DNA of 54,865 nucleotides, filler included, from Candidatus Woesearchaeota archaeon (GTDB taxonomy: Archaea; Nanobdellota; Nanobdellia; Woesearchaeales; BM511), in the NCBI GenBank assembly GCA_023266675.1. It is 4 parts of 4 records of this genome, joined end to end, with 100 filler letters (N's around TTAATTAATTAA, not from the genome) between each part and the next. Parts side by side here need not be neighbours in the genome. Positions count along the whole stretch, not along the records: positions 34,362 to 50,921 come from JAHFPP010000027.1; 3 more parts are not named here. One strand, 5' to 3'. The position numbers were made by a program, and so were the translations under genes. Positions 34,362-49,874 of the stretch are shown here, piece by piece. The notes below the pieces were generated by a model, which worked only from the letters and a program-made list of their open reading frames with translations, was not told the DNA's origin and searched no databases. Position 1 is the stretch's first letter. Each line of letters opens with the position of its first letter.

Positions 34362-34428
34362 TAGAGCAGTTCCATCTGATATTTGAGTTCTGATTTTAGT
34401 TTTCATATTATTATAGGTCAAGGAAATT

Positions 34429-34472
34429 AAAAAAAAGAAAGAGCCTTCCGACATGACTCAAAAGGCTCTTTC
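34429..34472 (-). terminator. Rho-independent terminator fused to a motif copy
   Basis: GAAAGAGCCTT...AAGGCTCTTTC hairpin followed by T8. Confidence 0.75.
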
Positions 34473-34505
34473 AAATAAACAACAAATAAAACGTGGAACA
34501 ACTTG

Positions 34506-34577
34506 TGAGGCAGACAGGAGTTTAACACTGTGACACATGGGCTTTCGGGCCATTGCTCTACACTGAGCTACTACCTC
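34506..34577 (-). ncRNA. Degenerate tRNA-like element
   Basis: Acceptor GAGGTAG/CTGCCTC-A and D arm GCTC/GAGC are intact. Anticodon arm (loop CCGAAAG) and T arm (ACAG/CTGT, no GTTC) are imperfect. Confidence 0.6.
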
Positions 34578-34582
34578 ATCTC

Positions 34583-34614
34583 CAAATATAATCAGGGAGA
34601 CTTTAAAAATCAAT
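34583..34614 (-). promoter_or_regulatory. Bacteroidota-type promoter (ATTG-N20-TATATTTG)
   Basis: Near-match to the TTTG-N19-21-TAnnTTTG consensus, 5 nt upstream of the tRNA-like element. Confidence 0.55.
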
Positions 34615-34620
34615 TGTTTT

Positions 34621-35106
34621 TTAAAAAAGTTCAAATTTAAAGTCATTGCTAAACCTTGTGCCTGCATAACGTCCAATTGATGCTCCTCCTTTTTCAAACC
34701 AAAATTCAACAGTTAAGGCTCCTTGTTTTTCTTCATCTAAAAGAACGTTATAAAAAGGGAGAACTGACAACTTAAATTCAGCAACCATTCGACCACATTC
34801 TTTTTGTGTAAACATTTTATCTCCAACAGTTAAAAGAAAAACAATTTCCTTAAAGACCATTCTTTCAAAACTCATTTTGATTGCTTTCTCTGCAATTGCC
34901 AAGTCATCACATCGTTTCAATCTTGAAGATAGAACATCAAACAATTTTTCTGCTTCTTTGCGGTTTTCTGTATATTTCCTTCCAAACGTTTTTGTTTTAT
35001 CAACAACTTCCACTCCGAATTTATCTCCATCTCTTAACATCATAACGAAAAGCCTATTTCCTTTGTAGTTAAGCGTATTTTCTTGTATTATTCTGAAATC
35101 ATCCAT
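34621..35106 (-). CDS. Phage hypothetical protein
   Basis: 161-aa ORF. Confidence 0.7.
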   Translation of the reverse strand: MDDFRIIQENTLNYKGNRLFVMMLRDGDKFGVEVVDKTKTFGRKYTENRKEAEKLFDVLSSRLKRCDDLAIAEKAIKMSFERMVFKEIVFLLTVGDKMFTQKECGRMVAEFKLSVLPFYNVLLDEEKQGALTVEFWFEKGGASIGRYAGTRFSNDFKFELF

Positions 35107-35122
35107 AAAAACTATTATTCAT

Positions 35123-35373
35123 TTATCTCCTACTTAAAATTTCTTTTGCATTCTCCATTGCTGTTTTGAAATGTCTTGTCCTATCACTCTGTGAGCAATC
35201 TTCATCTGCATTGGTTGTCATATCATCCAAAGCATCAATTAACTCATCAACTGGTTTAAGTGCTCATCGAATATTGAAACATCCAACTGTGTTAAATCTG
35301 TTTGGTCAAGTTGACCATTGATTGCCAATTCAATTAGTTTAGCTTTGATAGATTCTGCTATTTTCTTTTTCAT
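35123..35373 (-). pseudogene. Frameshifted small phage ORF (or sequencing error)
   Basis: MKKKIAESIK...SIFDE continues as ALKPVDELIDALDD...LSRR* after a one-base shift near 35265. The span is 251 nt. Confidence 0.5.
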
Positions 35374-35382
35374 TTTTGTATT

Positions 35383-35742
35383 TTATTTAGTACCTGTAAA
35401 TATTGTTTTACGATTATGAATATATTCTTCAGCAGGAACGATGAATTCATTGTTATCGTTTGCATTAGGATTGTCGTTTAAAAACTTCTCCATAGCTTTT
35501 ACATCTCCTGAATCGGATATTCTATCCATTTCTTGTACCATTTCAGGAGTAATTCCTTCATTGTATTCTTCCAATTCTTCTGGAGTTCTATTAGATAACA
35601 TAGATAGTGCATCATCAAATATTTCCTTCATAGCCTCCTCTCTTGTTGAGAATATGGTTGGGTTGTTTTTTTCATCTACAACTGCTTCCCATCCATCAAC
35701 TAAAGTATCCCAAACGATAATAAATCCTTTTTTCTTTTTCAT
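35383..35742 (-). CDS. Phage hypothetical protein
   Basis: ORF directly downstream of a motif copy. Confidence 0.8.
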   Translation of the reverse strand: MKKKKGFIIVWDTLVDGWEAVVDEKNNPTIFSTREEAMKEIFDDALSMLSNRTPEELEEYNEGITPEMVQEMDRISDSGDVKAMEKFLNDNPNANDNNEFIVPAEEYIHNRKTIFTGTK

Positions 35743-35792
35743 GTTGTTTGTTTATTATTATAGGTCAAGTAAAATAAAAAAAAGAAAGCTCC

Positions 35793-36059
35793 TTATATTT
35801 CTTCTGAGATGAAAACAAATTTCTCATCCAAGTGATTGTAACAGATAACATCAGCAGGGAGACTTAATATTCCTTCTTCAACAAAAAAGTAAATGCTTTC
35901 ATCAATTGAACGTTCAGTTGCTCCTTTAAGTTGACCATTGTTTTTTTGTATAGCCAACTGTAAAGTTTCATCAGCAATTTCAACTGTGATTTCTCCAGTT
36001 TCTCTTGACTCCATTGTGAATGTCCTTGTTGGATATTCTTTTCCTTTGTATGTAATCAT
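35793..36059 (-). CDS. Phage hypothetical protein
   Basis: ORF downstream of a motif copy. Confidence 0.8.
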   Translation of the reverse strand: MITYKGKEYPTRTFTMESRETGEITVEIADETLQLAIQKNNGQLKGATERSIDESIYFFVEEGILSLPADVICYNHLDEKFVFISEEI

Positions 36060-36140
36060 TTTATTTAAGTGTTAGGGTTTCTTATATTCTTATAGGTCAG
36101 ACTTATTAAAAAAAAGAAAAGGGAGACTTACTCCCAATCT

Positions 36141-36713
36141 TTAATCTTCAGGAAGATAACCTTTTAGGTTTTTTGCAGGACAAAACATCAATAATTCATC
36201 AATGGCTGTCATATCTCCAACTCTAACATCTTCTTTGATGCGTTCAAGAACCAAATCAATTACAGCTTGCTTAATAGCTTTTTGTTCTTCTTTTACTTCT
36301 TCAATTGCCTCTATAACAAGTGGGTCTTGAAAATCAGCTTCTGTGATTGTTGGATTTGTGCCTCTAATAACTTCTCCGTCAATGGTAACTTCGGCAACCA
36401 CTCTTGCTGTGTCAGAATTATCATCATCATCAGTATAGCAATCAATTGTAATATTTCCTGTATCAGGGTCAGTATAGTCAGTTTTAACTTCTATAAAGAT
36501 TTGCATTGGTTCTTTTGTTTCAGGCACAACAACTTTCCAGTTTTTTCTATCTAAAGGAATATCGTATTTTATTTGAGCCTCAGTAACTACACAAGTCTTC
36601 CCATAATTAAAATTGCTTACGTGAATACAAATCATTGTATCTCCTGCCTTTGGTTCTACTTCTGAGATAAAGACATTTTTAAATTTCTTAACTACCATTT
36701 TATCTGTTTTCAT
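36141..36713 (-). CDS. Phage hypothetical protein (acidic)
   Basis: 190-aa ORF followed by a GGGAG/CTCCC terminator. Confidence 0.8.
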   Translation of the reverse strand: MKTDKMVVKKFKNVFISEVEPKAGDTMICIHVSNFNYGKTCVVTEAQIKYDIPLDRKNWKVVVPETKEPMQIFIEVKTDYTDPDTGNITIDCYTDDDDNSDTARVVAEVTIDGEVIRGTNPTITEADFQDPLVIEAIEEVKEEQKAIKQAVIDLVLERIKEDVRVGDMTAIDELLMFCPAKNLKGYLPED

Positions 36714-36733
36714 TTTTCTTTTAAATTAAAGGA

Positions 36734-36970
36734 TTAAATTGAACTCCATACAATTGATATTGTGTAACCACTTTGATTAGCGTAATAGCCATTTTCAATG
36801 TGAAAATCAATATCATCAGGGCTTGCGCCATTTATAACTGCTTTATCAACAAAACATTTTTCGGCTTGTTCAACAACATCCTGAGATAATTGTTCTTCTT
36901 CAATTCCAAAGCTTTCAATTGATGAAACAGCATTATCTGTGTTTGATTCAATTACATTTATAATTCTCAT
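36734..36970 (-). CDS. Phage hypothetical protein
   Basis: ORF downstream of a motif copy. Confidence 0.75.
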   Translation of the reverse strand: MRIINVIESNTDNAVSSIESFGIEEEQLSQDVVEQAEKCFVDKAVINGASPDDIDFHIENGYYANQSGYTISIVWSSI

Positions 36971-37024
36971 GTCTTTATTTATTTGTTATATTATTATAGG
37001 TCAAGGAAAAGAAAAAAAAGAAAT

Positions 37025-37342
37025 TTACAATGCTTCAAGTTCTTCCAACAAACATAGTGCATCCAATACAGAAACAACATTTTCATTGATTGCCATACGA
37101 ATAGACAATTCTTTTTTTGTTGCGCCATGTCCTGAATAATAATCGTTTTGAACAAAATATCCATCTTTTGTTACACCAATAATTTCTTGATTTGATATTG
37201 TACCGAAAGAAAAGAATTCAAGATTATCTTCATCCGTTTCTCCAAGGAAGTCCCTGTTGATTCTTTCTAAGTTTTCTCTAATAAGTACAATTGCTTGTGC
37301 TTCAATTTCGGAAACTTGACTTCTAAGTGTTTCTGCTGTCAT
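37025..37342 (-). CDS. Phage hypothetical protein
   Basis: ORF flanked by motif copies. Confidence 0.8.
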   Translation of the reverse strand: MTAETLRSQVSEIEAQAIVLIRENLERINRDFLGETDEDNLEFFSFGTISNQEIIGVTKDGYFVQNDYYSGHGATKKELSIRMAINENVVSVLDALCLLEELEAL

Positions 37343-37396
37343 GTCGTTATTTATTTGTTTATAAAGTTATAGGTCAAGGAAAAGAAAAAAAAGAAA

Positions 37397-37633
37397 CTAT
37401 AAACTCATCTTTCTTTTGATATTGAATATTTGCAGGGTTGAGAAACCTGCTTTTTTCAATTTGCCTTCCCAAATTGTTTTAGCCTGAGTAGGAGTTACTT
37501 CGCCATCGTGATGATAGTTTTCAGGCGCTTCCATTGGTTGAAGCAAAATTTCCTTTTGAAGACTATTCAACTTAGCAGGGTCAAAGCCCAAGGCGTTTAT
37601 TTGTTCGTTTTGATAATTTTCGTATGTATCCAT
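37397..37633 (-). CDS. Phage hypothetical protein
   Basis: 78-aa ORF. Confidence 0.75.
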   Translation of the reverse strand: MDTYENYQNEQINALGFDPAKLNSLQKEILLQPMEAPENYHHDGEVTPTQAKTIWEGKLKKAGFSTLQIFNIKRKMSL

Positions 37634-37646
37634 TTTTGTTTTAAAT

Positions 37647-38027
37647 TTAATTAACGGTCATAAATTTACTAAATAATAGATTCACATTTTTATATCTTTC
37701 AGTCATTACAGCCTGATATTCTGCTTCACGTATTTTTTTATCTTCAGCACTTGTAAGATGATTAACATGAATTGCTTTCAACCACGCTTCCATATCATTA
37801 CCAAAATCTTGTGGGCGTTCTTGTGTTTGTTTGGCGTTGTGATACTTAGATTTATTATAATCAGGTACATAGTCGCTATTTCTACGAATGTCTTGAATTC
37901 GTTTGATTAACGCAGTATGTTTTTGGTCATCAACAAATTGTGCCAGTCTTTCAACTGCAGTTGACTCAGTATTAAGACCAAGTGTGGTTGCTACTTTGTT
38001 TATGAATATTTTGATTTTGTTTTCCAT
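37647..38027 (-). CDS. Phage hypothetical protein (probably leaderless)
   Basis: ATG lies 5 nt after the motif core. Confidence 0.75.
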   Translation of the reverse strand: MENKIKIFINKVATTLGLNTESTAVERLAQFVDDQKHTALIKRIQDIRRNSDYVPDYNKSKYHNAKQTQERPQDFGNDMEAWLKAIHVNHLTSAEDKKIREAEYQAVMTERYKNVNLLFSKFMTVN

Positions 38028-38061
38028 AATATTATAGGTCAAAGAAAATAAAAAAAAGAAA

Positions 38062-38289
38062 TTAATTAGAAATTTCAATTGTATCTAACAACATATTTCT
38101 TGCAACCAAGATAAAATCTTCAAATAAAAGGTCTTCATCTTTTTCAACAATTTTAATTGGTGCGCCAGTCTCATGGTCAGTAAGCATCAAGCTCCTATTA
38201 ACCGTGCTATATATGATGTCTTGCTCAAATCCTATAAGGTGAAAGCAAAATATTTTGTCTGTTATTTTAACTGCTAAGTTTGTGTCCAT
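38062..38289 (-). CDS. Phage hypothetical protein (probably leaderless)
   Basis: ATG lies 5 nt after the motif core. Confidence 0.75.
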   Translation of the reverse strand: MDTNLAVKITDKIFCFHLIGFEQDIIYSTVNRSLMLTDHETGAPIKIVEKDEDLLFEDFILVARNMLLDTIEISN

Positions 38290-38333
38290 AATATTATAGG
38301 TCAAAGAAAAGAAAAAAAAGAAATTGAAATTTA

Positions 38334-38365
38334 TTTGGTTTATATGAAACTATTTTATATATTTG
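38334..38365 (+). promoter_or_regulatory. Bacteroidota-type sigma promoter (TTTG-N20-TATATTTG) for the tRNA island
   Basis: TTTG at 38334-38337 and TATATTTG at 38358-38365. Confidence 0.7.
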
Positions 38366-38433
38366 TCGTATGAATTAGTGAGAATCATTTTTTTCTCATA
38401 TTTAGTAATAGAAAGTTCTTTATAAAAATATAT

Positions 38434-38506
38434 TGCGGGGTGGAGCAGTTGGTAGCTCGCCAGGCTCATAACCTGGAGGTCGTCCGTTCGAGTCGGGCCC
38501 CCGCTA
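38434..38506 (+). tRNA. tRNA-Met(CAT), initiator-like
   Basis: Cloverleaf with CCAGG-CTCATAA-CCTGG anticodon arm. The 1:72 mismatch is typical of bacterial tRNA-fMet. Confidence 0.92.
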
Positions 38507-38572
38507 CAAGTAAAAATAACATTCCTCTTAGTCCCTGTGAAAACAAACTTTGAGGTAAAACAAAAAAATTAG

Positions 38573-38653
38573 ATGAAAGCATTAGTTAACATATTAGTAA
38601 GTGAACGTGAAGAGGAACGCCAAACGGCAGGCTTCACTATGACTATGAGTTAA
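38573..38653 (+). CDS. Putative Glu-rich leader peptide MKALVNILVSEREEERQTAGFTMTMS
   Basis: 26-codon ORF with an A-rich leader and four Glu codons in six, immediately upstream of a terminator and two tRNA-Glu genes. Confidence 0.55.
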   Translation: MKALVNILVSEREEERQTAGFTMTMS

Positions 38654-38685
38654 CAATTAAATAAAGAAACTTAAAAATCAAAGAG

Positions 38686-38714
38686 GATAGCCAGCAATGG
38701 CTATCTTTTTTTTT
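38686..38714 (+). terminator. Rho-independent terminator or attenuator
   Basis: GATAGCCA-GCAA-TGGCTATC followed by T9. Confidence 0.85.
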
Positions 38715-38724
38715 GTACATATAT

Positions 38725-38798
38725 GGCGCTATCTTATAAGGGTAGTAAAATGGGCTTTCACCTCATGAATCGGAGTTCGACTCTCCGTAGCGCTACCA
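38725..38798 (+). tRNA. tRNA-Glu(TTC) with encoded CCA
   Basis: GGCGCTA/TAGCGCT acceptor, ATGGG-CTTTCAC-CTCAT anticodon arm and CGGAG-TTCGACT-CTCCG T arm. Confidence 0.88.
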
Positions 38799-38801
38799 AA
38801 T

Positions 38802-38873
38802 GTTCCCGTCTTCTAACGGTCAGGATGAAATGTTTTCACCATTTCGATGCCAGTTCAACTCTGGTCGGGAATA
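38802..38873 (+). tRNA. tRNA-Glu(TTC), second divergent copy
   Basis: GTTCCCG/CGGGAAT acceptor, AAATG-TTTTCAC-CATTT anticodon arm and GCCAG-TTCAACT-CTGGT T arm. Confidence 0.85.
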
Positions 38874-38874
38874 C

Positions 38875-39360
38875 TTATTTACATAGCTTACTTATGATTA
38901 ACTTTTCCTGCTTAATTCTTAAATTTGCTATTGAATCTTCAGATTTCTGTTTTGCAGCTTCAATTTTACTATAATCTGGTTTATCGAAATAATCATATTT
39001 AGCTAATGTTATATCTGTGTCTTCTTCATGATTAAAATCCAATGAATCAGGAGAAATCAAGGTAAGTGAAGTACCTATTGCACTTGTCAATTGTTTTATT
39101 TTAATATTACAATTTTTGTTTTCCCAAAATTCAATTGTGAAAAATTCATCATCCATAGCAAACATATTGTTTTTATGAGATATTGTATCTTCCTTATTTA
39201 TAAAAGTCCAGTCAGATGAATGTTCTTTCATATTTTCAATGATTATTTCTGAAAGTGTTTTTGGAGTTTCAGGAGAGTTTTTTATTGATGTTTTTATGAA
39301 CAATGCTAAAATAGTTCCAAGAAATGCTACTGTCAATATTGTGCCTAATACTTTTTTCAT
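38875..39360 (-). CDS. Phage membrane-anchored hypothetical protein
   Basis: N-terminal hydrophobic helix. Downstream of a motif copy. Confidence 0.75.
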   Translation of the reverse strand: MKKVLGTILTVAFLGTILALFIKTSIKNSPETPKTLSEIIIENMKEHSSDWTFINKEDTISHKNNMFAMDDEFFTIEFWENKNCNIKIKQLTSAIGTSLTLISPDSLDFNHEEDTDITLAKYDYFDKPDYSKIEAAKQKSEDSIANLRIKQEKLIISKLCK

Positions 39361-39532
39361 AATTTATTAATTAGATTGAAACTTTATTGTTTCTTAATCT
39401 TATAGGTCAGACAAAACAAAAAAAAGAAACCTTCTTGGATTTCTCAGGAAGGTTTCTCGAATACAGATATATGACAATTTTTATTTTCCATGTTATCAGG
39501 GAGTTTTCTCTGTTATAGAAATATGACGATTT

Positions 39533-39994
39533 TTATTTTTCATTTGTTTCATGTGTATTTTTAGATACAGGTTTTAAGCTATACTCAAATAATCTTTTTC
39601 CTACTGGTGTTCGGACAATTAATCCTTCTTTACTCAGATAAGATGCAGAATTATAGATTTGTTGCATCAACACTTTTTTGTCCTTTGGGAATTTTACTTC
39701 TGGATGAACAAATTTAATTCTGGCTGCAATCTCTTTGGTCATTGCAGGTCTTCCCATTTGTTTCAAAGTATCAATAAATACTTCATAAGAAGATAATTTA
39801 TGAGCTTTCTCTTTAGCTGGCTCAATAGCTTTTACTTTTTTTCCTTTTAGCTTAGAGTAGATTTTTCCTGCTACTCCTACATTTAATTTTTTGAATAGGG
39901 AGAGCAATGAATCTTCGTATGCTCTTGCCATTCCACTAACTAACTCGTTTACGTCTACGTTTCCAAGTTCTAAACTTTTTGATGCTATTTTCAT
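39533..39994 (-). CDS. Phage protein with a possible C-terminal winged-helix DNA-binding domain
   Basis: IDTLKQMGRPAMTKEIA...IYNSASYLSKEGLIVR...EYSL pattern. No phage motif upstream, but TATCTTTG at 40034-40041 (minus). Confidence 0.6.
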   Translation of the reverse strand: MKIASKSLELGNVDVNELVSGMARAYEDSLLSLFKKLNVGVAGKIYSKLKGKKVKAIEPAKEKAHKLSSYEVFIDTLKQMGRPAMTKEIAARIKFVHPEVKFPKDKKVLMQQIYNSASYLSKEGLIVRTPVGKRLFEYSLKPVSKNTHETNEK

Positions 39995-40485
39995 TTTTTT
40001 GTTTTTTTAAATGTTTATAATTAATTTACAATACAAAGATATATTCAAAATGTATTCCAAGAATTACAGAATTATTAAAATTAATTACATAATTCACATA
40101 TTAGATAGCCGATTTTCCAATAAAACAGGGAGATTCAGAGATTTGCAGAATAATTCTGGAAAATATAAATAAAGAATAAAGTATAGAATTGAGAGATAAA
40201 AATGTGTGGAAATTGATTCGCATTATCGTGGAGATGAGATAGTTATAAATTTAGTACCATAGCAAAGTGTGTGTATTTTTACTCAATTTTTGATAGTTAA
40301 ACGTATGGAATTATAAATCCAGTCTAAGTTGTACGCCTAGTGCAGATTTTTTATAGCTTTGCTTTGGTGAGTTGCATATTCCAGCATACATAACTAAAAG
40401 GGCAGTAACATCTCTTTCGGATGGTCTGCCCTTGTATCCACAGTGCATTGCTTTGTGTTTCCTTGTGTTTGGATGTCCCATGTTT

Positions 40486-40767
40486 TTAATCTACAAATTT
40501 ACCTTTACCGTGTTTCCCAGCTAATATTTCATTGTGAATTTTCATCGTCATTACAAAAATATCTGATTCAGGATAGTCTCCAGTAAAATAAGGACAAATT
40601 TTTTCAAGAAATACTTTTGATTCTAAGCGACTGCAGAACTTATGTCTTGTGCCACTTTTGATAATATATATCTGATTTTCACGAAAGAATTTAAAGCTGG
40701 TTGAATATTCAACGTTCTTATTGATTCTAAACCATTCTTTTTTCGGTGCTTCTGTTAATGTTTCCAT
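40486..40767 (-). CDS. Phage hypothetical protein (probably leaderless)
   Basis: ATG lies 5 nt after the motif core. Confidence 0.75.
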   Translation of the reverse strand: METLTEAPKKEWFRINKNVEYSTSFKFFRENQIYIIKSGTRHKFCSRLESKVFLEKICPYFTGDYPESDIFVMTMKIHNEILAGKHGKGKFVD

Positions 40768-40808
40768 AATATTATAGGTCAAGGTTATTAAAAAAAAGAA
40801 AGGGAGAA

Positions 40809-41321
40809 TTAAACTTTCCTCCCTTTAACTAATCTCATTCTACTTTTTAGTCGATTTAGCTTTCGTGCCTTAACCAATAGACAAGCATCTCCATTGGCTG
40901 CTGAATATGTTTTACCTGCATATTGCAATTTACCTTTACCTCCAAACCAACTAACTGCTTCAAGGGAGAGCGAGCCTGAATTATCATTGCCAAAGGCTAA
41001 TAACCTATTTGCTCCGTTTTCAAAACTAACAATCAATTGATTTGTCGAAATCATTGTATCTAATATACAGGGAGTGCCACGCTTTATGAAAACTGTTTCA
41101 CTATTCTTTTCATCTAAAAGAAAAATCTTTCCTTCTTTAACGGTAACATTACTTTCATCTTGGACTTTAGATAGAACAATATCCTTTGAACTGTAAAGTT
41201 GAATTTGTCTCAGGGAACTTTCCGAGAAGTTGTATTTCTTAATTATTTCAGTTGTAAGTGCTGTCTTCCGAGCGCATGATGTGAGTAACAGGGAGAGGAA
41301 TATGATTTTAATTAATTTCAT
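40809..41321 (-). CDS. Putative lipoprotein
   Basis: LLLTSC lipobox. Confidence 0.75.
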   Translation of the reverse strand: MKLIKIIFLSLLLTSCARKTALTTEIIKKYNFSESSLRQIQLYSSKDIVLSKVQDESNVTVKEGKIFLLDEKNSETVFIKRGTPCILDTMISTNQLIVSFENGANRLLAFGNDNSGSLSLEAVSWFGGKGKLQYAGKTYSAANGDACLLVKARKLNRLKSRMRLVKGRKV

Positions 41322-41601
41322 TGGCTGCTTTTTGTATTTTTGTGTAAATGACTACTGAGAGTGCTGCTGCAAATATTCCTACAATTCCACCAATAAACCT
41401 ATGTGTTTGTTCTTTGGTATAAGAATTTTTCTTTGTTGAGGTGATTCCATAATTTTCAAGTCCTGTCTTTGGCTCAGACTTCTTCCAGTTATCTTGTGCC
41501 TCTGTCGATGGTTTATAAGCCCCGAATTGTTCTTTTTTGCTTTGTGCATAGGAAAGTGTCATCAGGGCTAATAAAACGATTGTGAGCGTTAATTTTTTCA
41601 T
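41308..41601 (-). CDS. Secreted or membrane hypothetical protein
   Basis: Signal peptide ending SYA-Q and a C-terminal TM. Confidence 0.7.
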   Translation of the reverse strand: MKKLTLTIVLLALMTLSYAQSKKEQFGAYKPSTEAQDNWKKSEPKTGLENYGITSTKKNSYTKEQTHRFIGGIVGIFAAALSVVIYTKIQKAANEIN

Positions 41602-41801
41602 TTCTTTTCTTTGATTTTATAATCAGGTGTTAATTCAATATTGTTTTGTTTTAGAATATTAAACAAAAGTTGTCTTGCATCAGCTACGCCTAAAGATAAA
41701 AATCCGTCTTTTAATGTATCTAATAGTAAAACATTGGTATCAATATCCTTGATTAGCTTTACTACTACCTTTAAAGCTTTTTCTTTTTGTGTCTGTGCCA
41801 T
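41598..41801 (-). CDS. Phage hypothetical protein
   Basis: 67-aa ORF with ATGA overlap. Confidence 0.7.
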   Translation of the reverse strand: MAQTQKEKALKVVVKLIKDIDTNVLLLDTLKDGFLSLGVADARQLLFNILKQNNIELTPDYKIKEKK

Positions 41802-41806
41802 TTTGT

Positions 41807-42211
41807 TTATAAATTATTCATCATTTTATAAGTTTCCTCGTCAATCTCATCAGTAGAATCAACACTTCTTGCATCTTCGCCATCAATTTTTTTTTGTTCT
41901 ACGGCTAATGCAATTATGTCTTCTTCTTCTAATTCAACATCTGATTCAACTGCTACGGAGAAACCGTTTTTTCGACTATAAAATACGTGTGCTTCATAAA
42001 AGAATTTTACAGTTTTTGTTTCTTGTCCGCATACAAGACAATTGTGATTTTGAGAAGGAGAAATTGTTTCACAAGCATTGCAGCGTTCCCAAGCTAATTT
42101 TAATTTTTTAAATTTACTGTCAGAAAAAGAATTGATATGTTCAAATACTGCTGCTTGTCCTGAGTCTTCGTAAAGGTCTTTGCAAGTTTCATTAAGTGTT
42201 TTTTTTGACAT
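41807..42211 (-). CDS. Phage hypothetical protein with a zinc-ribbon-like CxxC..CxxC
   Basis: CNAC...CLVC. Downstream of a motif copy. Confidence 0.75.
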   Translation of the reverse strand: MSKKTLNETCKDLYEDSGQAAVFEHINSFSDSKFKKLKLAWERCNACETISPSQNHNCLVCGQETKTVKFFYEAHVFYSRKNGFSVAVESDVELEEEDIIALAVEQKKIDGEDARSVDSTDEIDEETYKMMNNL

Positions 42212-42252
42212 GATGTTTTTTTATTTGTTTATATTATTATAGGTCAAGGTTT

Positions 42253-42519
42253 TTATAAAAAAGAATCGGCAATTTCACAAAGTTGTTCTAAGGTCAAACA
42301 AGAATGGTTATAAGAATATCCATTATTATCAATCAATATTTTACTGGTTATTTCAGTTAAATAACGTCCACCTTCTAAATTAAACATTTGGTCATCTTGA
42401 ATTTTTAAAACCAAATCGGTTATATGTTCGCTTTCAACGCCTTTTTTCTTAATTAATTTTTCAATCTTAACAGCAACTTCTTTTTCAAGTTCTTGATATT
42501 TTTGTGTTTTTGTTTTCAT
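42253..42519 (-). CDS. Phage hypothetical protein
   Basis: The 3' end overlaps the next motif copy. Confidence 0.75.
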   Translation of the reverse strand: MKTKTQKYQELEKEVAVKIEKLIKKKGVESEHITDLVLKIQDDQMFNLEGGRYLTEITSKILIDNNGYSYNHSCLTLEQLCEIADSFL

Positions 42520-42539
42520 TTTATTTCAGATTAAAATAA

Positions 42540-42863
42540 TTAAATTAATTTTTGTCCCATACGTTCCCATTCAATAGAATCATCTAATGTTTGTTCTGAA
42601 ATAATTTCAGCTATAACCATATTGCTATCATCTCCATATTGTTCTCTGAGGTCTTCAAGTGAATTGTAATATCCACTTACATAATCACGAATGTTTTTTT
42701 CAGTATAATCTGCAAAATCAATTTCTTGCATTACATTTGCATGACGTTCATATACTTCAAAATTCAAGTCAGAACATTTTTTCACCCATTGTTCTGTTGC
42801 TTTGCTGCCATCGGTACAGATAAAACCTGCCTCTTTTAATGACTTTATTGACATTCTTTTCAT
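42540..42863 (-). CDS. Phage hypothetical protein (probably leaderless)
   Basis: ATG lies 5 nt after the motif core. Confidence 0.75.
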   Translation of the reverse strand: MKRMSIKSLKEAGFICTDGSKATEQWVKKCSDLNFEVYERHANVMQEIDFADYTEKNIRDYVSGYYNSLEDLREQYGDDSNMVIAEIISEQTLDDSIEWERMGQKLI

Positions 42864-42897
42864 AATATTATAGGTCAAGATTAATAAAAAAAAGAAA

Positions 42898-43155
42898 TTA
42901 TGGTTGATATTCAAAACCTTCAAAGTCTTCAACATATTTAGAAACTATTGCGTGAATATTTTCTTTTGTATCAGAACAATTGTTGGATAACTTTTGAATT
43001 AAAGTTCCATAAGCAGAACATCCATTGTTATATAGTTCAACAGCATAATGATTTGCAGCAGTCTTTTTATTGTCTCTATAATATTTCACTTCAGGAAAAT
43101 ACTTTGCATCCAATTCTTTATTTACTTTATTGAAGAAGTCATTTACAAGTTTCAT
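42898..43155 (-). CDS. Phage hypothetical protein
   Basis: Flanked by motif copies. Confidence 0.78.
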   Translation of the reverse strand: MKLVNDFFNKVNKELDAKYFPEVKYYRDNKKTAANHYAVELYNNGCSAYGTLIQKLSNNCSDTKENIHAIVSKYVEDFEGFEYQP

Positions 43156-43211
43156 GTTGTTTGTTTTGATATATTATTATAGGTCAGAGAAAAGATAAAA
43201 AAGAAAATATT

Positions 43212-43340
43212 TTATTCCCACATTCCTGGGAAGCGTGGTGTTTCTTTTTTAGAATTTTTATACCTGTGATATAGCGATACTATTATTAGATAGACTACAC
43301 ATAAGCCTAAACAAATTAAAAAAAGAAATAGCATATTCAT
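43212..43340 (-). CDS. Small single-TM phage protein
   Basis: MNMLFLFLICLGL... flanked by motif copies. Confidence 0.65.
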   Translation of the reverse strand: MNMLFLFLICLGLCVVYLIIVSLYHRYKNSKKETPRFPGMWE

Positions 43341-43419
43341 GTCTTTTGTTTTTGATATATTATTATAGGTCAGATAAAACAAAAAAAAGAAAGGGAGACT
43401 TTCGCCTCCCCTTCGTTTA

Positions 43420-43713
43420 TCAATATAGCCATGTTTCATTTAAAATAACTTCTTCTTGATGGTCTTCATCCAGTCCGCAGATTATTACATCAACTTTAAT
43501 TTCAATTGGATTGATAGAAATAACGTGCGGATAAATTATTTTAACTTCACAATCAAAATGACTTTGTAAGGCTTCAACCAATTTTGGTTCTAAAGCACAT
43601 TTTATTCTATTTTTATTATTTGCTTCTTTTAATTTATAGTTAATTTCTCCTAAGTCGATAACTCCGATGTTTGATTCGCCTTTAATCTGAATGTTTACAA
43701 ATTTACCTTCCAT
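43420..43713 (-). CDS. Phage hypothetical protein
   Basis: 97-aa ORF followed by a GGGAGGC-GAAA-GTCTCCC terminator. Confidence 0.75.
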   Translation of the reverse strand: MEGKFVNIQIKGESNIGVIDLGEINYKLKEANNKNRIKCALEPKLVEALQSHFDCEVKIIYPHVISINPIEIKVDVIICGLDEDHQEEVILNETWLY

Positions 43714-43751
43714 AATGTTTTTTTATTTATTTAATTAATTCAAGAATTGAG

Positions 43752-43964
43752 TTATAGATATTTAGTATCACAATGGTCTTCGATAAATTCTTCAACTTCT
43801 TCAGGTGTCATTTCATCATCAAAATGAACACCTATAAGTTCATCAATTAATTCATCATTTACTTTAACTTCTACACCATCAGCAAGGTTTGTTCCATCAG
43901 TATCAATCATTGCATCTCTTAATGTAACTGTTCCGAATTTTGTTTCTACTGTTAATTCTGCCAT
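43752..43964 (-). CDS. Phage hypothetical protein (acidic)
   Basis: Downstream of a motif copy. Confidence 0.75.
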   Translation of the reverse strand: MAELTVETKFGTVTLRDAMIDTDGTNLADGVEVKVNDELIDELIGVHFDDEMTPEEVEEFIEDHCDTKYL

Positions 43965-44018
43965 GTTATTTGTTTTTTATTTATAGGTCAAAGTTATTAA
44001 AAAAAAGAAAGGGAGACT

Positions 44019-44363
44019 TTATAAACTTTTTGCCAATTTTAGCAAATCTCTTTTCCAATCTTTAAAATCTTTTAAGCCCTGAGTAATCGTAAAGGCAGCT
44101 CTATAATCTTTCATTTCACGGTGCAACTCAATTTCTTCATCAATATCAATGCTATTGACACGCTCCAAAAACAATTCTTTAAAATCTTTTTCGTTTTTCG
44201 GGTCTTTATCAGTATCTCTGAAATCAACAAATACAATTTGATTAACACCGCCATTGGTGTATGTATTTAATTCATATCCACAAAGTTTTTTTCCTTCTTT
44301 GTACTCATCAATTGAGATATTAATTAAGTTTGATGCTGCGATTTTATCAAATATTTTTTTCAT
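44019..44363 (-). CDS. Phage hypothetical protein
   Basis: Start MKKIFDK lies downstream of a motif copy. Confidence 0.78.
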   Translation of the reverse strand: MKKIFDKIAASNLINISIDEYKEGKKLCGYELNTYTNGGVNQIVFVDFRDTDKDPKNEKDFKELFLERVNSIDIDEEIELHREMKDYRAAFTITQGLKDFKDWKRDLLKLAKSL

Positions 44364-44412
44364 GTTGTTTGTTTTATTATTATAGGTCAGTGAGAATAGA
44401 AAAAAGAAAGAA

Positions 44413-44604
44413 TTATTTTTTGCCAGGGAAAGGTGCATATTCAACTTTCCACTTTCCTTTTACCCAAGTAACTTTTCCACCTCTTTCGTGTATTATTTTT
44501 GAAATAGCAACAATTGTTTCTGCTTTATCGAGTTTTTCTTCAAGTGTAACAGTTGGAATTTTCTCAACTGAATTTATTAACTTGTTATAGAATTTGAGTG
44601 TCAT
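44413..44604 (-). CDS. Phage hypothetical protein
   Basis: Flanked by motif copies. Confidence 0.72.
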   Translation of the reverse strand: MTLKFYNKLINSVEKIPTVTLEEKLDKAETIVAISKIIHERGGKVTWVKGKWKVEYAPFPGKK

Positions 44605-44654
44605 AGTTTTTTATTTATATAGGTCAAGCAAAAAGAAAAAAAGAAAGGGAGACT

Positions 44655-45398
44655 TTACGCTGCTGTTCGTATTGCAAAATTACTTTCAAATGCAATCTTA
44701 TTGTTTGCGCCTTTATTGGTAACAATCTTATATTTAAGCCCAACAATAACACCTTTCGGGTCAAGATGGCGTAAATCATTCAGGTCGCCATTAATTACCT
44801 TGTATCCATTAAATTTTTTTGGCAATTTATCAAATACGACTGCAACATTAATTCCTTTTTTGATTAGTTCCATAGCAATTGCCTCATTGGTTTCAGAACG
44901 GCTGAATATCAATCTGTAATTTTTAGGCAATTCTTTATTGAATCTAAGATAGTTTTTTGTGTAGTCATAAAATTGAACAGATGGAAACAACTCAAATATT
45001 GTTTTATTATCTACAATCTTAAAGGACTCCCAAGAAATATCGCTTGTTCCATTCAATCGGATTGTTACCTTTGTTCCTTCAAGTCTATGTTTTAATTCAA
45101 TTTGAGCAATCTCAATATAAAGCATATTTAAGAACTTTGTTCTATCTGAAAGAAAAAACTCAGTTTTATTTGTTCTGCCTTTTTGGATATTGGTCATTGA
45201 GCCGTGTCCTGACATAAATAAACAGGCTGCAGCACATCCCGCACTTGCTTTTGGACAAATACTTTTTCCAGTTGAGTTTTGTCTATGTGGAGACATATAT
45301 AAAATATATGTTTTCCAGCCCAGTTTTTCACCTTTGATTGTCTTTGCGTTATTGGTGGTCAGTAAAGACGTTGGTATGTAATAGCTTTTTGGTTTCAT
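44655..45398 (-). CDS. Gp88-like phage protein (radical-SAM-like Cys motif)
   Basis: CPKASAGCAAAC, RLNGTSDI.WE, FYDYTK and GD..DLR.LDP.GVIVGLK. ATG lies 5 nt after the motif core. Confidence 0.75.
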   Translation of the reverse strand: MKPKSYYIPTSLLTTNNAKTIKGEKLGWKTYILYMSPHRQNSTGKSICPKASAGCAAACLFMSGHGSMTNIQKGRTNKTEFFLSDRTKFLNMLYIEIAQIELKHRLEGTKVTIRLNGTSDISWESFKIVDNKTIFELFPSVQFYDYTKNYLRFNKELPKNYRLIFSRSETNEAIAMELIKKGINVAVVFDKLPKKFNGYKVINGDLNDLRHLDPKGVIVGLKYKIVTNKGANNKIAFESNFAIRTAA

Positions 45399-45636
45399 AT
45401 TATTATAGGTCAGGTAAAAGAAAAAAAAGAAAATGCAAGTAATTACTCCACGTTTACTCCCAATCAAAATATAAGGCAGGAGTGGATTACCTCTCGGAGC
45501 CTGTTTCACTTTCCGTGCTTATATCCTTATAGGTCAGAGAAAAGAAAAAAAAGAAAGGATTGAGTTTGGCCCAAAAAGAATGAGGACCGCTCCTTTTGGA
45601 AACGGCCCTCTATTGCTACCCCTAACAATAATATCT

Positions 45637-45894
45637 TTATTTTGTGTGAATGTATGCTGAACTTTTATCTTCTAGGTAACGGTCAACATTTTGATATAGA
45701 ATTTCACAATCATTAACTTGTTCTAGCTTAGCCATAAGTAAATCATCATATTTATTCATTTCGTCAATACCAATGGAATAATCTCCATTTTTGAAGTATG
45801 TGCCTGAATCAAATACTTTTAGTTCATCTTTCTCGATTCTAGAATCAAAGAAGGCATCAAGCATTTTCTTTTGTTTAAGTGTTAGTTGTCTCAT
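45637..45894 (-). CDS. Phage hypothetical protein
   Basis: Downstream of a motif copy. Confidence 0.75.
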   Translation of the reverse strand: MRQLTLKQKKMLDAFFDSRIEKDELKVFDSGTYFKNGDYSIGIDEMNKYDDLLMAKLEQVNDCEILYQNVDRYLEDKSSAYIHTK

Positions 45895-45935
45895 ATTGTT
45901 TTGTTATTATAGGTCAAGGAAAATAAAAAAAAGAA

Positions 45936-46190
45936 TTAAAGTCCTGCAAGTTTTTTGGCCCTTTCGATAGCCAATTCTTTTGTTGTTTCACTTGTTGATA
46001 GATTATTGCCTTGAATAGCAAATTTGTGGCTTGTCATATATTCAGAAGTAACATTATCTAAATTCAGTTGTTCTCTTTCTTTTGAGCCTTTAGGAAAGTT
46101 TTTTGCCTCAAATGTTCTTTTATAAACGGAAAATGTACCGTTTGTTTGTCCAGAAGTTGTTGCTTTAAATGTCGCAATTGGTCTATTCAT
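45936..46190 (-). CDS. Phage hypothetical protein
   Basis: Flanked by motif copies. Confidence 0.75.
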   Translation of the reverse strand: MNRPIATFKATTSGQTNGTFSVYKRTFEAKNFPKGSKEREQLNLDNVTSEYMTSHKFAIQGNNLSTSETTKELAIERAKKLAGL

Positions 46191-46234
46191 TTGTTTTTAT
46201 TATTATAGGTCAAGCAAAAGAAAAAAAAGAAACT

Positions 46235-46417
46235 CTAAACCCTGCTTTCTAAAACTTTAATAAGTTCTTCTAATACAAATTGGGTTTTATAAGGCATTGT
46301 AGATTCAATTTTAACAGCTTCTTTATTTATTTTGCTGCAAACCTCACTTGCTAATTTATTTACCAATCCTTCAAATTCAGGATATTTCTGCAATGATGTT
46401 CGGTTATCTTTAGCCAT
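46235..46417 (-). CDS. Phage hypothetical protein
   Basis: Start MAKDNR follows an A-rich leader. The longer upstream extension overlaps the ncRNA candidate. Confidence 0.65.
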   Translation of the reverse strand: MAKDNRTSLQKYPEFEGLVNKLASEVCSKINKEAVKIESTMPYKTQFVLEELIKVLESRV

Positions 46418-46448
46418 TTTGTTTGAGTTTAAAGTGAAAATTATTTGT

Positions 46449-46648
46449 GGGCTGTGAGTGGCACGACCACCCGACCTATAAACCCTTCCCAACCACTTCA
46501 AGGAGCTGAACTTCCTCCTATGCCTCATTGGTATCGTTTTACGCATCTAAGGCTTAAAACATAATAGCACTTGAAGTTACCTTGATACCCTGTTCAGATA
46601 AGTTTTAACACCTATGAGCATCTGCCTTATAATTAACCTTAACAGTCC
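46449..46648 (-). ncRNA. Candidate multiply pseudoknotted ncRNA (about 200 nt)
   Basis: At least six complementary 6-9 nt segment pairs, in a region richer in GC than its surroundings. Confidence 0.55.
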
Positions 46649-46664
46649 TTGTATTTATTATAAG

Positions 46665-46841
46665 CTAAAAAGAAATATTATTTGATTTCAATACTTCCAT
46701 TAATTCCTCGCAGTCCATAACACACCAGTCTTTCCCATCAAACCAAGCAAGGTCTAAATCAACCAATTCGTTTTTCAACTGTTCAGTTACTTCAATAGTA
46801 CGCTGTGTAGGTTCGGAATCTACTAAAAATAATTTTATCAT
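46665..46841 (-). CDS. Small phage hypothetical protein (58 aa)
   Basis: MIKLFLVDSEPTQ...NNISF*, with an A-rich leader. Confidence 0.6.
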   Translation of the reverse strand: MIKLFLVDSEPTQRTIEVTEQLKNELVDLDLAWFDGKDWCVMDCEELMEVLKSNNISF

Positions 46842-46865
46842 TTTGTTTTTATATTAAAGTAAAAA

Positions 46866-47099
46866 TTAATCTTGTTTTTCTCCATCTATATATACAGTAT
46901 CTTCATCTGCATTTGTAAAGTCTTTAATGATTGTCCCATCGGGAAGTTCAATAAATTCTTCATCCACATAGTACAAATCTTCATCATCAACATCCACAGA
47001 TTCAATGTTTGATACTGTTTTTGTTTCTATGTCAAAGTCGCAGCTTGTTTTAAAAATGCTATCTCCGTTATCCCAACTACTTACAAATGTTGCTTTCAT
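46866..47099 (-). CDS. Phage hypothetical protein (very acidic)
   Basis: Downstream of a motif copy. Confidence 0.75.
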   Translation of the reverse strand: MKATFVSSWDNGDSIFKTSCDFDIETKTVSNIESVDVDDEDLYYVDEEFIELPDGTIIKDFTNADEDTVYIDGEKQD

Positions 47100-47142
47100 G
47101 TTTTTGTTTTTTATTATAGGTCAAGGAATTTAAAAAAAAGAA

Positions 47143-47445
47143 TTAAACTTCGTCTGCATCAACAATTTCATATTTTTTACTTTCAATTTTCTTTGATATA
47201 GAAGAACCTTTAAACATATAATCAAGGTCATCTTTGTCCATATCATTTATAGGATAGCCATCAGAAGTGCCTCTACTTATAACTTTTAATTCGCCATCAA
47301 CTTTTACAAAACCATATATTTTGTCACTTCCATATATTTTGTCACTTCCATCAAGTCCGCCAGTACAAAGAAAAGTATCTTGTCCTAAGTCTAATCCTTG
47401 TCCTTCAGGAAGGAATGATAGCATTTTTATTAATTTCTTTTTCAT
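47143..47445 (-). CDS. Phage hypothetical protein
   Basis: Start MKKKLIK lies downstream of a motif copy. Internal tandem GSDKIY repeat. Confidence 0.75.
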   Translation of the reverse strand: MKKKLIKMLSFLPEGQGLDLGQDTFLCTGGLDGSDKIYGSDKIYGFVKVDGELKVISRGTSDGYPINDMDKDDLDYMFKGSSISKKIESKKYEIVDADEV

Positions 47446-47491
47446 GTGTTTTTGTTTTTTATTATAGGTCAAAGAAAAGGAAAAAAAGAAT

Positions 47492-47869
47492 TTATTTAAA
47501 AAGTTCATCAAATTGTTTCTTGGAATAGACACTTCCTGTTTTATACTCAGCATCTTTTTCTGAAAATTCAAGGTTGCCAGCTTCATCAAGTGCCAAACGC
47601 TCTGCTTCTGCTCTATTTGATGCCTCAACTGTAATTTCTTTTGAAGACCAAGATGTACGAGTTACAGATACAATGAATTTTTCTTTTTCAACATATTCTA
47701 TTTGGCTAGGAGTTACAGCAAATCCAAATACTATGTTATAAAGAGGATGGGCAGTTAATCTATAACGACCATTACCAATACAATGCTCTTCAATTAAAAC
47801 TATTTCTCCTTTTTTAAGAGATTGTCCAAACTTATAGTTCTTGCCTTTTTTTATAATTGCTTTTCTCAT
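47492..47869 (-). CDS. Phage hypothetical protein, C-terminus DpnD/PcfM-like
   Basis: F.VSVTRT.....ITVEA.N..EAE..A pattern. Confidence 0.6.
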   Translation of the reverse strand: MRKAIIKKGKNYKFGQSLKKGEIVLIEEHCIGNGRYRLTAHPLYNIVFGFAVTPSQIEYVEKEKFIVSVTRTSWSSKEITVEASNRAEAERLALDEAGNLEFSEKDAEYKTGSVYSKKQFDELFK

Positions 47870-47948
47870 TGTAGTTATTTGTTTTTGTTTATATTATTAT
47901 AGGTCAAAGAAAAGAAAAAAAAGAAAGGGAGACTTTACTCCCAATCCT

Positions 47949-48359
47949 TTATTCAATTCCAATATATTCACAGGCTGCTTTAACAGTAAAGCTATATTCA
48001 ACATTTTCCCACATTGTAATACCATCAACATAATCCGCTGTTTGGTCGGGCTGTTCTTTTAAGGCTTTACGTAATATTTTAACTTGCATTGAAATTTCTT
48101 CATCATTGCTGCCTGACAATATTTGCCCTGCTTTACGAATGATTAACTTTTCCGTATTTTCTTCTATCTGTGCAGGGAGCGATTGAACTGTACACCAACG
48201 GTGCATAAATTCTCTTTTTTCTCCATCAAACCACACACGCAGAATTAATCCACCATGTAAAAAATTCATTTCAGCTTTCCAATCTTTACCATTGGTAACT
48301 TTTTCCATTTCGGACTTGTAGAACGCTTTTGCTTCTTTAAGAAATTTTGAATTTGTCAT
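47949..48359 (-). CDS. Phage hypothetical protein
   Basis: Flanked by motif copies, with a terminator downstream. Confidence 0.78.
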   Translation of the reverse strand: MTNSKFLKEAKAFYKSEMEKVTNGKDWKAEMNFLHGGLILRVWFDGEKREFMHRWCTVQSLPAQIEENTEKLIIRKAGQILSGSNDEEISMQVKILRKALKEQPDQTADYVDGITMWENVEYSFTVKAACEYIGIE

Positions 48360-48417
48360 TTTTTATTTATTTAGGGGTTTATATGTTATTATAGGTCAAA
48401 GAAAAAGAAAAAAAGAA

Positions 48418-48839: not shown

Positions 48840-48872
48840 ATTATTATAGGTCAAGGAAAATAAAAAAAAGAA

Positions 48873-49265: not shown

Positions 49266-49311
49266 TTTGTTTGTTTTTTATTATAGGTCAAGGAAAATAA
49301 AAAAAAGAAAC

Positions 49312-49647: not shown

Positions 49648-49669
49648 TGTGTCGTGTTTTATTATAAAT

Positions 49670-49834: not shown

Positions 49835-49874
49835 AGTTTTTATTATTATAGGTCAGAGATAGCAGAAAAAAGAA

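Follow-up and report, generated by a model that had tools for sequence, protein, structure and literature searches.

The reading that best accounts for this locus, which we put forward tentatively and with somewhat less than even confidence, is that of a host-style tRNA operon with a leaky internal terminator that works in both directions. The operon runs counter to every other gene of what appears to be a Bacteroidota phage-like element. Host RNA polymerase with sigma-A would initiate at TTTG/TATATTTG, transcribe an initiator-like tRNA-Met gene and a structured spacer of 178 nt, and mostly halt at a strong terminator. The same hairpin would also end the transcript of a convergent gene of 161 aa, which otherwise would run antisense through both tRNA-Glu genes located behind the terminator. 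These tRNA-Glu genes have no canonical promoter and would therefore be expressed by the polymerases that read through the hairpin. Such read-through would be a fixed leak setting the ratio of tRNA-Glu to tRNA-Met, and the Glu-rich ORF present in the spacer would be no proven sensor. The parts and their order, the type and conservation of the promoter and the disposition of the strands are shown by the data below, whereas the expression route by read-through, the use of the hairpin from both sides and the lack of regulation are inferred.

The window, that is, the whole stretch of DNA analysed (54,865 nucleotides, filler included), is not a single phage genome. It is composed of four contigs (C66, C67, C68 and C81) of one MAG of 1.22 Mb and 83 contigs, joined by runs of N, and the locus lies on C68 (window positions 34362-50921). 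Archaeal housekeeping genes are found on C66, C67 and C81, with matches that include archaeal RqcH, Rad50, Hel308 and an archaea-specific SMC-related protein. The G+C content of C68 is lower than that of these three contigs. Four contigs of the MAG are of low GC (C3, C10, C68 and C74), and all of them bear a repeated promoter motif of about 35 nt, TTTCTTTTTTTTnTTTTnnTTGACCTATAATAATAT. The 24-nt form of this motif is present in 76 copies with at most three mismatches, and its core, GACCTATAA, in 106 exact copies on the four contigs, 101 of which are on the gene strand; the 11-nt form YTGACCTATAA has only two matches in the remaining 79 contigs. Almost all ORFs have the motif upstream, and in many cases it is continuous with the T-tail of a hairpin that precedes it. 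C68 has 28 promoters of the element type, every one of them directed to the minus strand, and a motif search of this contig found no element promoter core on the plus strand near the tRNA genes.

The coding content of the element is mostly unfamiliar: among the 36 tiling minus-strand ORFs of C68 that were scanned, 34 had no PHROG family and 35 no Pfam family, and the ORFs with a family match were a GP88 protein and phrog_4496. Taken together, the element contigs (C3, C10, C68 and C74) encode a sigma-70-family factor, two ParB-like proteins, a DUF932 protein and GP88. The search of IMG/VR with the long pattern of the motif family gave no matches, and with the short pattern only single chance matches; the family was found in 49 small contigs (L189, described below, among them) of groundwater, sediment and mat metagenomes, and also in Bacteroidota MAG contigs of GTDB. 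IMG/VR contained no relatives of the two proteins that flank the locus, and the search of the MAG family (4 genomes) and of its phylum (about 400 genomes) returned only low-complexity or motif matches. In the available parts of the phi14:2 preprint, no motif matches the repeated promoter of the element. We conclude that C68 appears to be part of a Bacteroidota phage-like element that was mis-binned into an archaeal MAG. The initial guess of a phage-like context with a Bacteroidota host is therefore supported by the motif relatives in Bacteroidota MAGs, by the sigma factor and by the likeness of the tRNA-Met. An archaeal virus was also considered, and it is ruled out by the sigma-70-family factor, the bacterial initiator-type tRNA-Met and the Bacteroidota MAG relatives. 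The window is thus, as one should bear in mind, a chimera of archaeal and bacterial-virus contigs.

The promoter, the tRNA-Met gene, the small ORF, the terminator and the pair of tRNA-Glu genes were all found, in this order and at most 1 nt away from where they had been placed before. As regards the promoter, the consensus for Bacteroidota sigma-A is TTTG at -33 and TAnnTTTG at -7, according to the accessible portions of two publications (PMC6847099, PMC9723704). Upstream of tRNA-Met both boxes are present within the usual spacing of about 19-21 nt: the promoter (38334..38365, plus strand) has its -33 TTTG at 38334-38337, a spacer of 20 nt and the -7 box TATATTTG at 38358-38365. It stands back to back with the element-type promoter core (38302..38294) of a divergent element gene on the minus strand (38062..38323, ATG at 38289). 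The tRNA-Met(CAU) gene is located downstream (38434..38507, plus strand; found with ARAGORN, 59.2 bits with the Rfam tRNA model); it is initiator-like, and its first pair (1:72) is a mismatched, non-canonical U:U. The single syntenic relative, a metagenome contig (L189) that stops 14 nt past tRNA-Met, keeps both promoter boxes with a spacer of 19 nt. The conservation in L189 of this -33/-7 promoter of Bacteroidota type, with host-like spacing and leader, is an observation on the side of the leaky terminator. A separate scan for sigma-70-type promoters gave counts at chance level (15 against 17.3 expected, and 67 against 73.5 expected), and it is therefore uninformative for this host.

The comparison with host genes was made with the tRNA-fMet units of two Bacteroidota MAGs (L208 and L210). 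The tRNA-Met of the element presents 87% identity to the host tRNA-fMet of one of them, a Bacteroidetes MAG (L208). As in the element, the host units have TTTG, 20 nt and a TAnnTTTG box (TATCTTTG); their leader measures about 70 nt, compared with 69 nt in the element, and the U:U first pair is common to the host initiator-like tRNAs and to the tRNA-Met of the element. The difference is found downstream: in the host units a terminator follows within about 10 nt of the tRNA and there are no further tRNA genes, whereas the element unit has the 178-nt spacer before its terminator and two tRNA-Glu genes behind it. Judged by promoter type and leader length, the tRNA-Met unit appears to be a copy of a Bacteroidota host tRNA-fMet gene.

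The predicted intrinsic terminator (38686..38714, listed without strand) sits between the candidate leader ORF and the tRNA-Glu genes. It has a perfect stem of 8 bp with four G-C pairs (38686-38693/38698-38705), a GCAA loop and a run of nine T (38706-38714), and its predicted energy is -11.3 kcal/mol for the core and -16.4 kcal/mol with the A/U extension. The tail of the hairpin on the minus strand is CTCTTTGATTTTT / CTCTTTGATT, and the terminator scan lists the minus strand only; in our reading the plus strand is omitted probably because its stem extension swallows part of the T-run. The hairpin thus has a U-rich tail on either strand (U9 on the plus strand) and is placed between convergent units, as expected by sequence of a bidirectional terminator. 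The convergent element gene (38875..39408, minus strand; ORF of 161 aa at 39360..38875) has its own element-type promoter, with the core GACCTATAA at 39408..39400, and its stop codon abuts the second tRNA-Glu gene. Past 38875, this hairpin is the first terminator-like site that its transcript meets, none being found earlier. The hairpin thus lies at the meeting point of plus and minus transcription and may be viewed as a two-way insulator.

Bidirectional intrinsic terminators stand between convergent transcription units. The known examples resemble the present one in having a G+C hairpin, A-rich on one side and with a T-run on the other, at the place where the two strands meet. Here, however, the convergent gene ends two tRNA genes away from the hairpin, and therefore the plus-strand terminator is found inside the gene cluster and not at its end.

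The first tRNA-Glu(UUC) gene (38725..38798, plus strand; 52.3 bits with the Rfam tRNA model, CCA encoded) begins 10 nt past the T-run of the terminator. The second one (38802..38874, plus strand; 45.8 bits) is of the usual bacterial tRNA-Glu type and has no encoded CCA, and the two copies are much unlike each other. In line with the earlier statement that these genes lack an obvious promoter of their own, no exact TAnnTTTG box was found from the terminator to tRNA-Glu. In this interval there are only two overlapping matches in seven of the eight positions, TATCTTTT (38702-38709) and TTTTTTTG (38708-38715). Both are at the right distance from the 5' end of the tRNA, so that the pair might have a weak promoter of its own, overlapping the 3' arm of the terminator and its T-run, with transcription starting a few bases before copy 1 and with neither the terminator nor the ORF playing a part. 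The use of TATCTTTG by host tRNA-fMet genes, and the weak conservation of the -33 element in Flavobacterium reported in the accessible portion of PMC6847099, would agree with such a promoter. We nevertheless consider it very unlikely: in the published material at hand six positions of the -7 box are nearly invariant and each of the near-matches breaks one of them, there is no TTTG at -33 for either box, and near-matches of this kind are common in T-rich DNA. An independent tRNA-Glu promoter seems possible but weak, and the expression of tRNA-Glu would most likely need read-through. The presence of a strong terminator 10 nt before genes with no promoter calls for a means of read-through, which is a point against a simple leak.

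One such means, proposed in the first-pass annotation, is ribosome-mediated attenuation, in which an ORF with Glu codons would sense the supply of tRNA-Glu and tune read-through into the tRNA-Glu pair. The candidate leader ORF, which begins with ATG and has 26 codons (38573..38653, plus strand; peptide MKALVNILVSEREEERQTAGFTMTMS), is contained in the 178-nt spacer between tRNA-Met and the terminator (38508..38685, plus strand), a stretch absent from the host tRNA-fMet units. When tRNA-Glu is scarce, a ribosome would stall at codons 11-15 and occupy the Glu-run arm of a hairpin formed within the ORF (1:2); GGCUUCACU would then base-pair with the terminator's 5' arm, and the polymerase would continue into the tRNA-Glu genes. 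With ample tRNA-Glu, or with no translation, the 1:2 hairpin and the terminator would form. Overall we regard this explanation as rather doubtful. Formally, the locus is laid out like a leader-peptide attenuator, with the Glu codons in one arm of 1:2 and the candidate antiterminator strand in the other, and the missing canonical -7 box after the terminator is also in its favor. Regulated read-through would, in addition, account for the ORF, an observation that goes against the leaky terminator.

The codon run expected of a leader-peptide attenuator is there: the sequence GAA-CGT-GAA-GAG-GAA (38603..38617, plus strand) encodes E-R-E-E-E, with four Glu in codons 11-15 and tRNA-Glu(UUC) genes downstream. 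At least four Glu in five codons are found in only one of the 221 short ORFs of the element, namely the candidate leader, and in 6 of the 992 windows of 26 aa taken from its long ORFs (0.6%). This Glu run is the only attenuator feature clearly beyond chance (about 0.5%), and its occurrence just upstream of tRNA-Glu, being that rare, counts against the leaky terminator. The ORF itself is less exceptional: when the 217-nt spacer was dinucleotide-shuffled 5000 times, 13.4% of the shuffles contained an ATG ORF with 26 codons or more (P=0.134), and the opposite strand of the same 217 nt carries an ATG ORF of 25 codons. Between the end of the leader ORF and the terminator stem there are 32 nt.

The translation start of this ORF also argues against attenuation. 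There is an A-rich tract upstream, yet U is found at -3, as in 3 of 73 element genes, and G at -1, as in 9 of 73. In Flavobacterium, according to the available parts of the published work, A at -3, -6, -12 and -13 favours initiation and U at -3 is significantly rarer among the best-translated genes; in the leader ORF, A is present at two of these four positions only, -6 and -13. A position-weight score places its start among the best 9% when compared with 1727 non-start ATGs, but 99% of 91 inferred starts score higher. The start context of the leader ORF seems, then, to be poor for Bacteroidota.

The predicted secondary structures gave a mixed result. The 1:2 helix is an imperfect long hairpin within the ORF (38585..38654, plus strand; -17.4 kcal/mol, z -2.87) in which UUCACU is the partner of AGUGAA/GUGAAG from the Glu run, and its stem base, GUUAAC/GUUAAC, takes in the stop codon. 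It was equalled by one of 200 shuffles; among genomic windows of 76 nt, an equally good fold is reached by 3.3% of 5890, and by 4.4% of the 1859 that are matched in GC, which weakens the case for attenuation. The candidate antiterminator strand GCAGGCUUCACU (GCAGGCTTCACT), or region 2 (38627..38638, plus strand), can pair with AGAGGAUAGCC at 38682-38692. This 2:3 pairing would have 8 base pairs, split into three short blocks and closing a loop of 43 nt, with about -10.3 to -10.6 kcal/mol. Without restriction of position, a pairing as strong occurs in 6.0% of 2000 shuffles and in 17.6% of 267 genomic windows of 62 nt; limited to the expected 24 nt, the figures are 1.2% (5000 shuffles) and 3.8% (9356 genomic windows). 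In the predicted folds the 1:2, 2:3 and 3:4 helices are mutually exclusive, so that the candidate antiterminator excludes the terminator. Exclusive helices are what an attenuator requires and, together with a positioned antiterminator matched in 1.2-3.8% of cases, they count against a plain leak. A gap of 15 nt separates the last Glu codon from the first base of region 2 that is paired, and in our reading the N/D/E run of a comparable module in another tRNA array (module 2 of L211, described below) keeps the same gap, a further point for attenuation.

When the zone covered by the ribosome is masked, the predicted terminator fold (-19.1 kcal/mol) is far stronger than the antiterminator fold (-10.3 kcal/mol). 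A terminator fold that wins at equilibrium would leave a kinetic switch possible, and this comparison is not alone decisive. Of the antiterminator originally proposed, the pairing with the 5' arm of the terminator does exist, but it is only marginal against chance (1-18% depending on the test). Similarly, folding of the alternative structures yields the classical 1:2/2:3/3:4 topology, while the energies of 1:2 and 2:3 are marginal and the terminator is the stronger structure. The ORF, the 1:2 hairpin and the antiterminator are each marginal, at about 1-18% of chance. Apart from the Glu run, no attenuator feature stands out from chance, an observation in line with the leaky terminator. Furthermore, the locus was picked from a very large scan, in which an occasional chance look-alike is to be expected. 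Another stretch, UUCCUCUU (38523-38530), was tried as antiterminator and rejected, since it pairs with AAGAGGA located 5' of the terminator and the core stem stays free. A search of sequencing runs listed no RNA run containing the locus. The metatranscriptome of the same sample covers only the tRNA-Met part, with contigs that are less than 95% alike and come from the tRNA-Met of other organisms, and it favours neither reading.

Leader-peptide attenuators are well known in enterobacteria, where trpL, hisL, leuL, pheL and thrL are examples, together with pheM before pheST. The locus resembles them in the short ORF with a run of cognate codons inside a hairpin, in the alternative pairing to the 5' arm of the terminator and in the position of the putatively regulated genes directly behind it. 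It differs from them in that the genes behind the terminator are tRNA genes and not biosynthetic or synthetase genes, in that an upstream tRNA gene belongs to the same transcript, in the host phylum, which would be Bacteroidota, and in the weakness of the antiterminator, which does not clearly exceed chance. In the titles and opening lines of abstracts examined, we found no paper on leader-peptide attenuation of phage tRNA genes.

A more instructive comparison is offered by L211 (G401:C1123), a 1.8-kb contig of a Bacteroidetes MAG reached via a chance tRNA-Met match. Its order is tRNA-Met, a second tRNA(CAU), an ORF of 28 codons, a terminator, two tRNAs with UUC anticodon and then Tyr, Asn, Asp and Asp, and there is also a paralogous ORF of 22 codons upstream. 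For each ORF, the terminal stretch is predicted to form an antiterminator with the 5' arm of the terminator that belongs to it (-14.0 and -15.4 kcal/mol), and these antiterminators are matched by only 0.6% and 0.65% of 2000 shuffles. Between the two modules there is a compensatory change, GGCUGG/CCAGCC versus GGACUGG/CCAGUCC. L211 and our locus have in common the succession of tRNA-Met, small ORF, terminator and two UUC tRNAs, and an ORF rich in the residues whose tRNAs come next, although there is no sequence homology between them. On the other hand, in L211 region 2 shares sequence with the final codons and the stop, whereas in the window it lies 13 nt before the stop, the ORF extending four codons past it, which disfavors attenuation. 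The antiterminator of the window, at -10.3 kcal/mol and with no paralogue, is also far weaker than those of L211.

Given its covarying modules, L211 makes the class of device plausible beside tRNA genes, a point for attenuation, and the copy in the window is weak by comparison. L211 would show what a convincing switch looks like near tRNA genes in Bacteroidota. The fact that leader/terminator switches with significant, covarying antiterminators precede tRNA genes there is, in turn, an observation against an unregulated leak.

The small ORF and terminator modules of the L211 tRNA array also agree with another explanation, according to which the spacer is a product in itself, either a small RNA from the 3' trailer of tRNA-Met, with its end at the terminator, or a protein of 26 aa. 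The tRNA-Glu genes would then have been acquired separately, being poorly expressed or served by a factor-dependent antitermination of the element, which does encode a transcription factor of its own (the sigma factor). Small RNAs usually consist of a hairpin with a Rho-independent terminator behind it, and the spacer is an insertion relative to the host tRNA-fMet units. The only Rfam matches in it are to small RNAs that align on the terminator, and all of them fall far below the gathering scores; at gathering score, the Rfam scan of the locus and of the other element contigs gave no family except tRNAs. The whole-spacer folding z-score is only -1.58, and neither a family match nor a homologue was found, so we consider this explanation improbable. 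Small RNAs are also cut from the 3' external transcribed spacers of tRNAs, as is 3'ETS-leuZ of E. coli. Like the spacer, this RNA is a structured stretch from the 3' end of a tRNA to the terminator of the operon; unlike it, the spacer has more tRNA genes behind the terminator, and here it is known from sequence alone.

The searches for homologues concern the attenuation and the spacer-product explanations alike. No homologue of 38508-38880 was found in phage records, in IMG/VR, in the 49 metagenome contigs, in about 400 genomes of the MAG phylum or in five motif-bearing genomes, and the lack of a leader homologue in the collections searched counts against attenuation. The phage records gave matches only to tRNA-Met, plus two weak matches to Streptomyces-phage tRNA-Glu genes, and the exact pattern of tRNA-Glu copy 1 had no match in IMG/VR. 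With the 32-mer of the tRNA-Met core, 115 loci were obtained in IMG/VR, 23 of them with further tRNAs, and no spacer homologue was present among the 115. Two relatives of the element (L172 and L177) have a tRNA-Phe gene that is oriented with the gene strand and preceded by a gene of about 170 aa, and neither a leader ORF nor a terminator was found upstream of it. The tRNA-Phe genes of these relatives, carried with no such upstream leader ORF or terminator, are in agreement with the leaky terminator.

The evidence so far does not yet raise the locus above an ordinary leaky terminator. It is a possible, although doubtful, proposition that a phage-like element gauges Glu decoding with an ORF of 26 codons and opens the terminator only on stalling at GAA/GAG, for example after host tRNA-Glu has been cut or depleted. 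If this were true, tRNA supply would be self-regulating at the level of transcription, with a mobile element making a tRNA only when it is short, and the case would bear on the answers of phages to tRNA-cutting defences. If the attenuator is false, the locus would still be a clean case of a host-derived tRNA-fMet unit grafted onto the opposite strand of an element that otherwise relies on promoters of its own type and has a gene for a sigma factor.

The stretch analyzed (window positions 1-54865) is a chimera of four contigs from one MAG, joined through N filler. Contigs C66 (1-17245), C67 (17346-34261) and C81 (51022-54865) carry archaeal genes, and genes on them matched archaeal RqcH, Rad50 and Hel308. 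Unlike these three, C68 (34362-50921) is a bacterial phage-like contig.

Nearly every gene on C68 and on three other low-GC contigs of the same MAG, C3, C10 and C74 (loci L214, L215 and L216, respectively), is preceded by a motif about 35 nt long, TTTCTTTTTTTTnTTTTnnTTGACCTATAATAATAT. On C68, 28 copies lie on the minus strand, for example with cores at 38302..38294 and 39408..39400. The exact core occurs 106 times in the 56 kb of these four contigs; the other 1.17 Mb of the MAG gave 2 matches to the 11-nt form YTGACCTATAA. In many copies the T-tail of a hairpin terminator runs directly into the motif. An ATG is placed 4 nt 3' of the core in 25 of 91 cases, an arrangement suggesting that transcription from the motif would yield leaderless mRNAs. 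When compared with the sigma-70 consensus and with the Bacteroidota sigma-A consensus, the motif fitted neither. It is probably the promoter used by the element's own sigma factor, and a candidate for its reader is encoded on C10 (L215 5779-6498, minus strand): a sigma-70-family protein of 239 aa with regions 2 and 4, assigned to phrog_1740, whose gene is adjoined by ParB-like genes.

The search for the motif family in IMG/VR found no representatives; the motif was found in 49 metagenome contigs and in a few Bacteroidota MAGs. Core copies were also observed in large chromosomal contigs of such MAGs, two in a 547-kb contig (L206) and five in a 135-kb contig (L207), which could stem from a small relative of the element that has integrated there or, alternatively, from a host regulon with the same type of promoter. 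Furthermore, some promoter copies on C3, C10 and C74 are followed by a conserved stretch without an ORF, either AAGACAGAAAGTTTACAACTTGAGTCGACCACC and its variants or another one beginning with AAGAGAGATGCCTT. These stretches recur in the relative L203, at 8315 (plus strand) and 3968 (minus strand), and no Rfam family matched them. We consider them candidates for promoter-driven small RNAs.

Regarding the tRNA operon of C68, in which a Glu-rich 26-codon ORF and a terminator separate tRNA-Met from two tRNA-Glu(UUC) genes, the sequence UUCCUCUU (38523-38530), located early in the spacer between tRNA-Met and the terminator, is a perfect complement to AAGAGGAA (38610-38617), within the Glu run of the ORF. 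It perfectly complements as well AAGAGGA (38681-38687), immediately 5' of the terminator; another set of competing pairings would thereby be added at this locus.

A much better candidate than the C68 locus for a leader-peptide attenuator gating tRNA genes lies on a 1.8-kb contig of a Bacteroidetes MAG (L211, G401:C1123). This contig contains two paralogous mini-ORF modules, of 22 codons (74-200) and 28 codons (783-930), rich in Asn, Asp, Glu and Tyr. At its 3' end, each mini-ORF complements the 5' arm of the downstream terminator, with predicted pairings of -15.4 and -14.0 kcal/mol, respectively, matched by 0.65% and 0.6% of shuffles, and the pairing differs between the two modules in a compensatory way. 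The second module precedes two tRNAs with anticodon UUC, followed by those for Tyr, Asn, Asp and Asp.

Two other features were recorded in the L211 array. ARAGORN assigned anticodon UUC to an 88-nt tRNA at 1018-1105 (Rfam tRNA, 44.3 bits). This tRNA has a long variable arm, and such a body is unusual with a Glu anticodon. The other feature, a second CAU tRNA (571-643), was detected by Rfam only.

Within the element family, the relatives L172 and L177 carry a tRNA-Phe(GAA) (2749-2822 and 634-707, respectively) on the minus strand of these loci, which is the gene strand, about 60 nt downstream of a conserved gene encoding about 170 aa, and directly followed by a module of hairpin, T-run and promoter. 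Therefore, both the tRNA cargo and its position differ across the family of the element.
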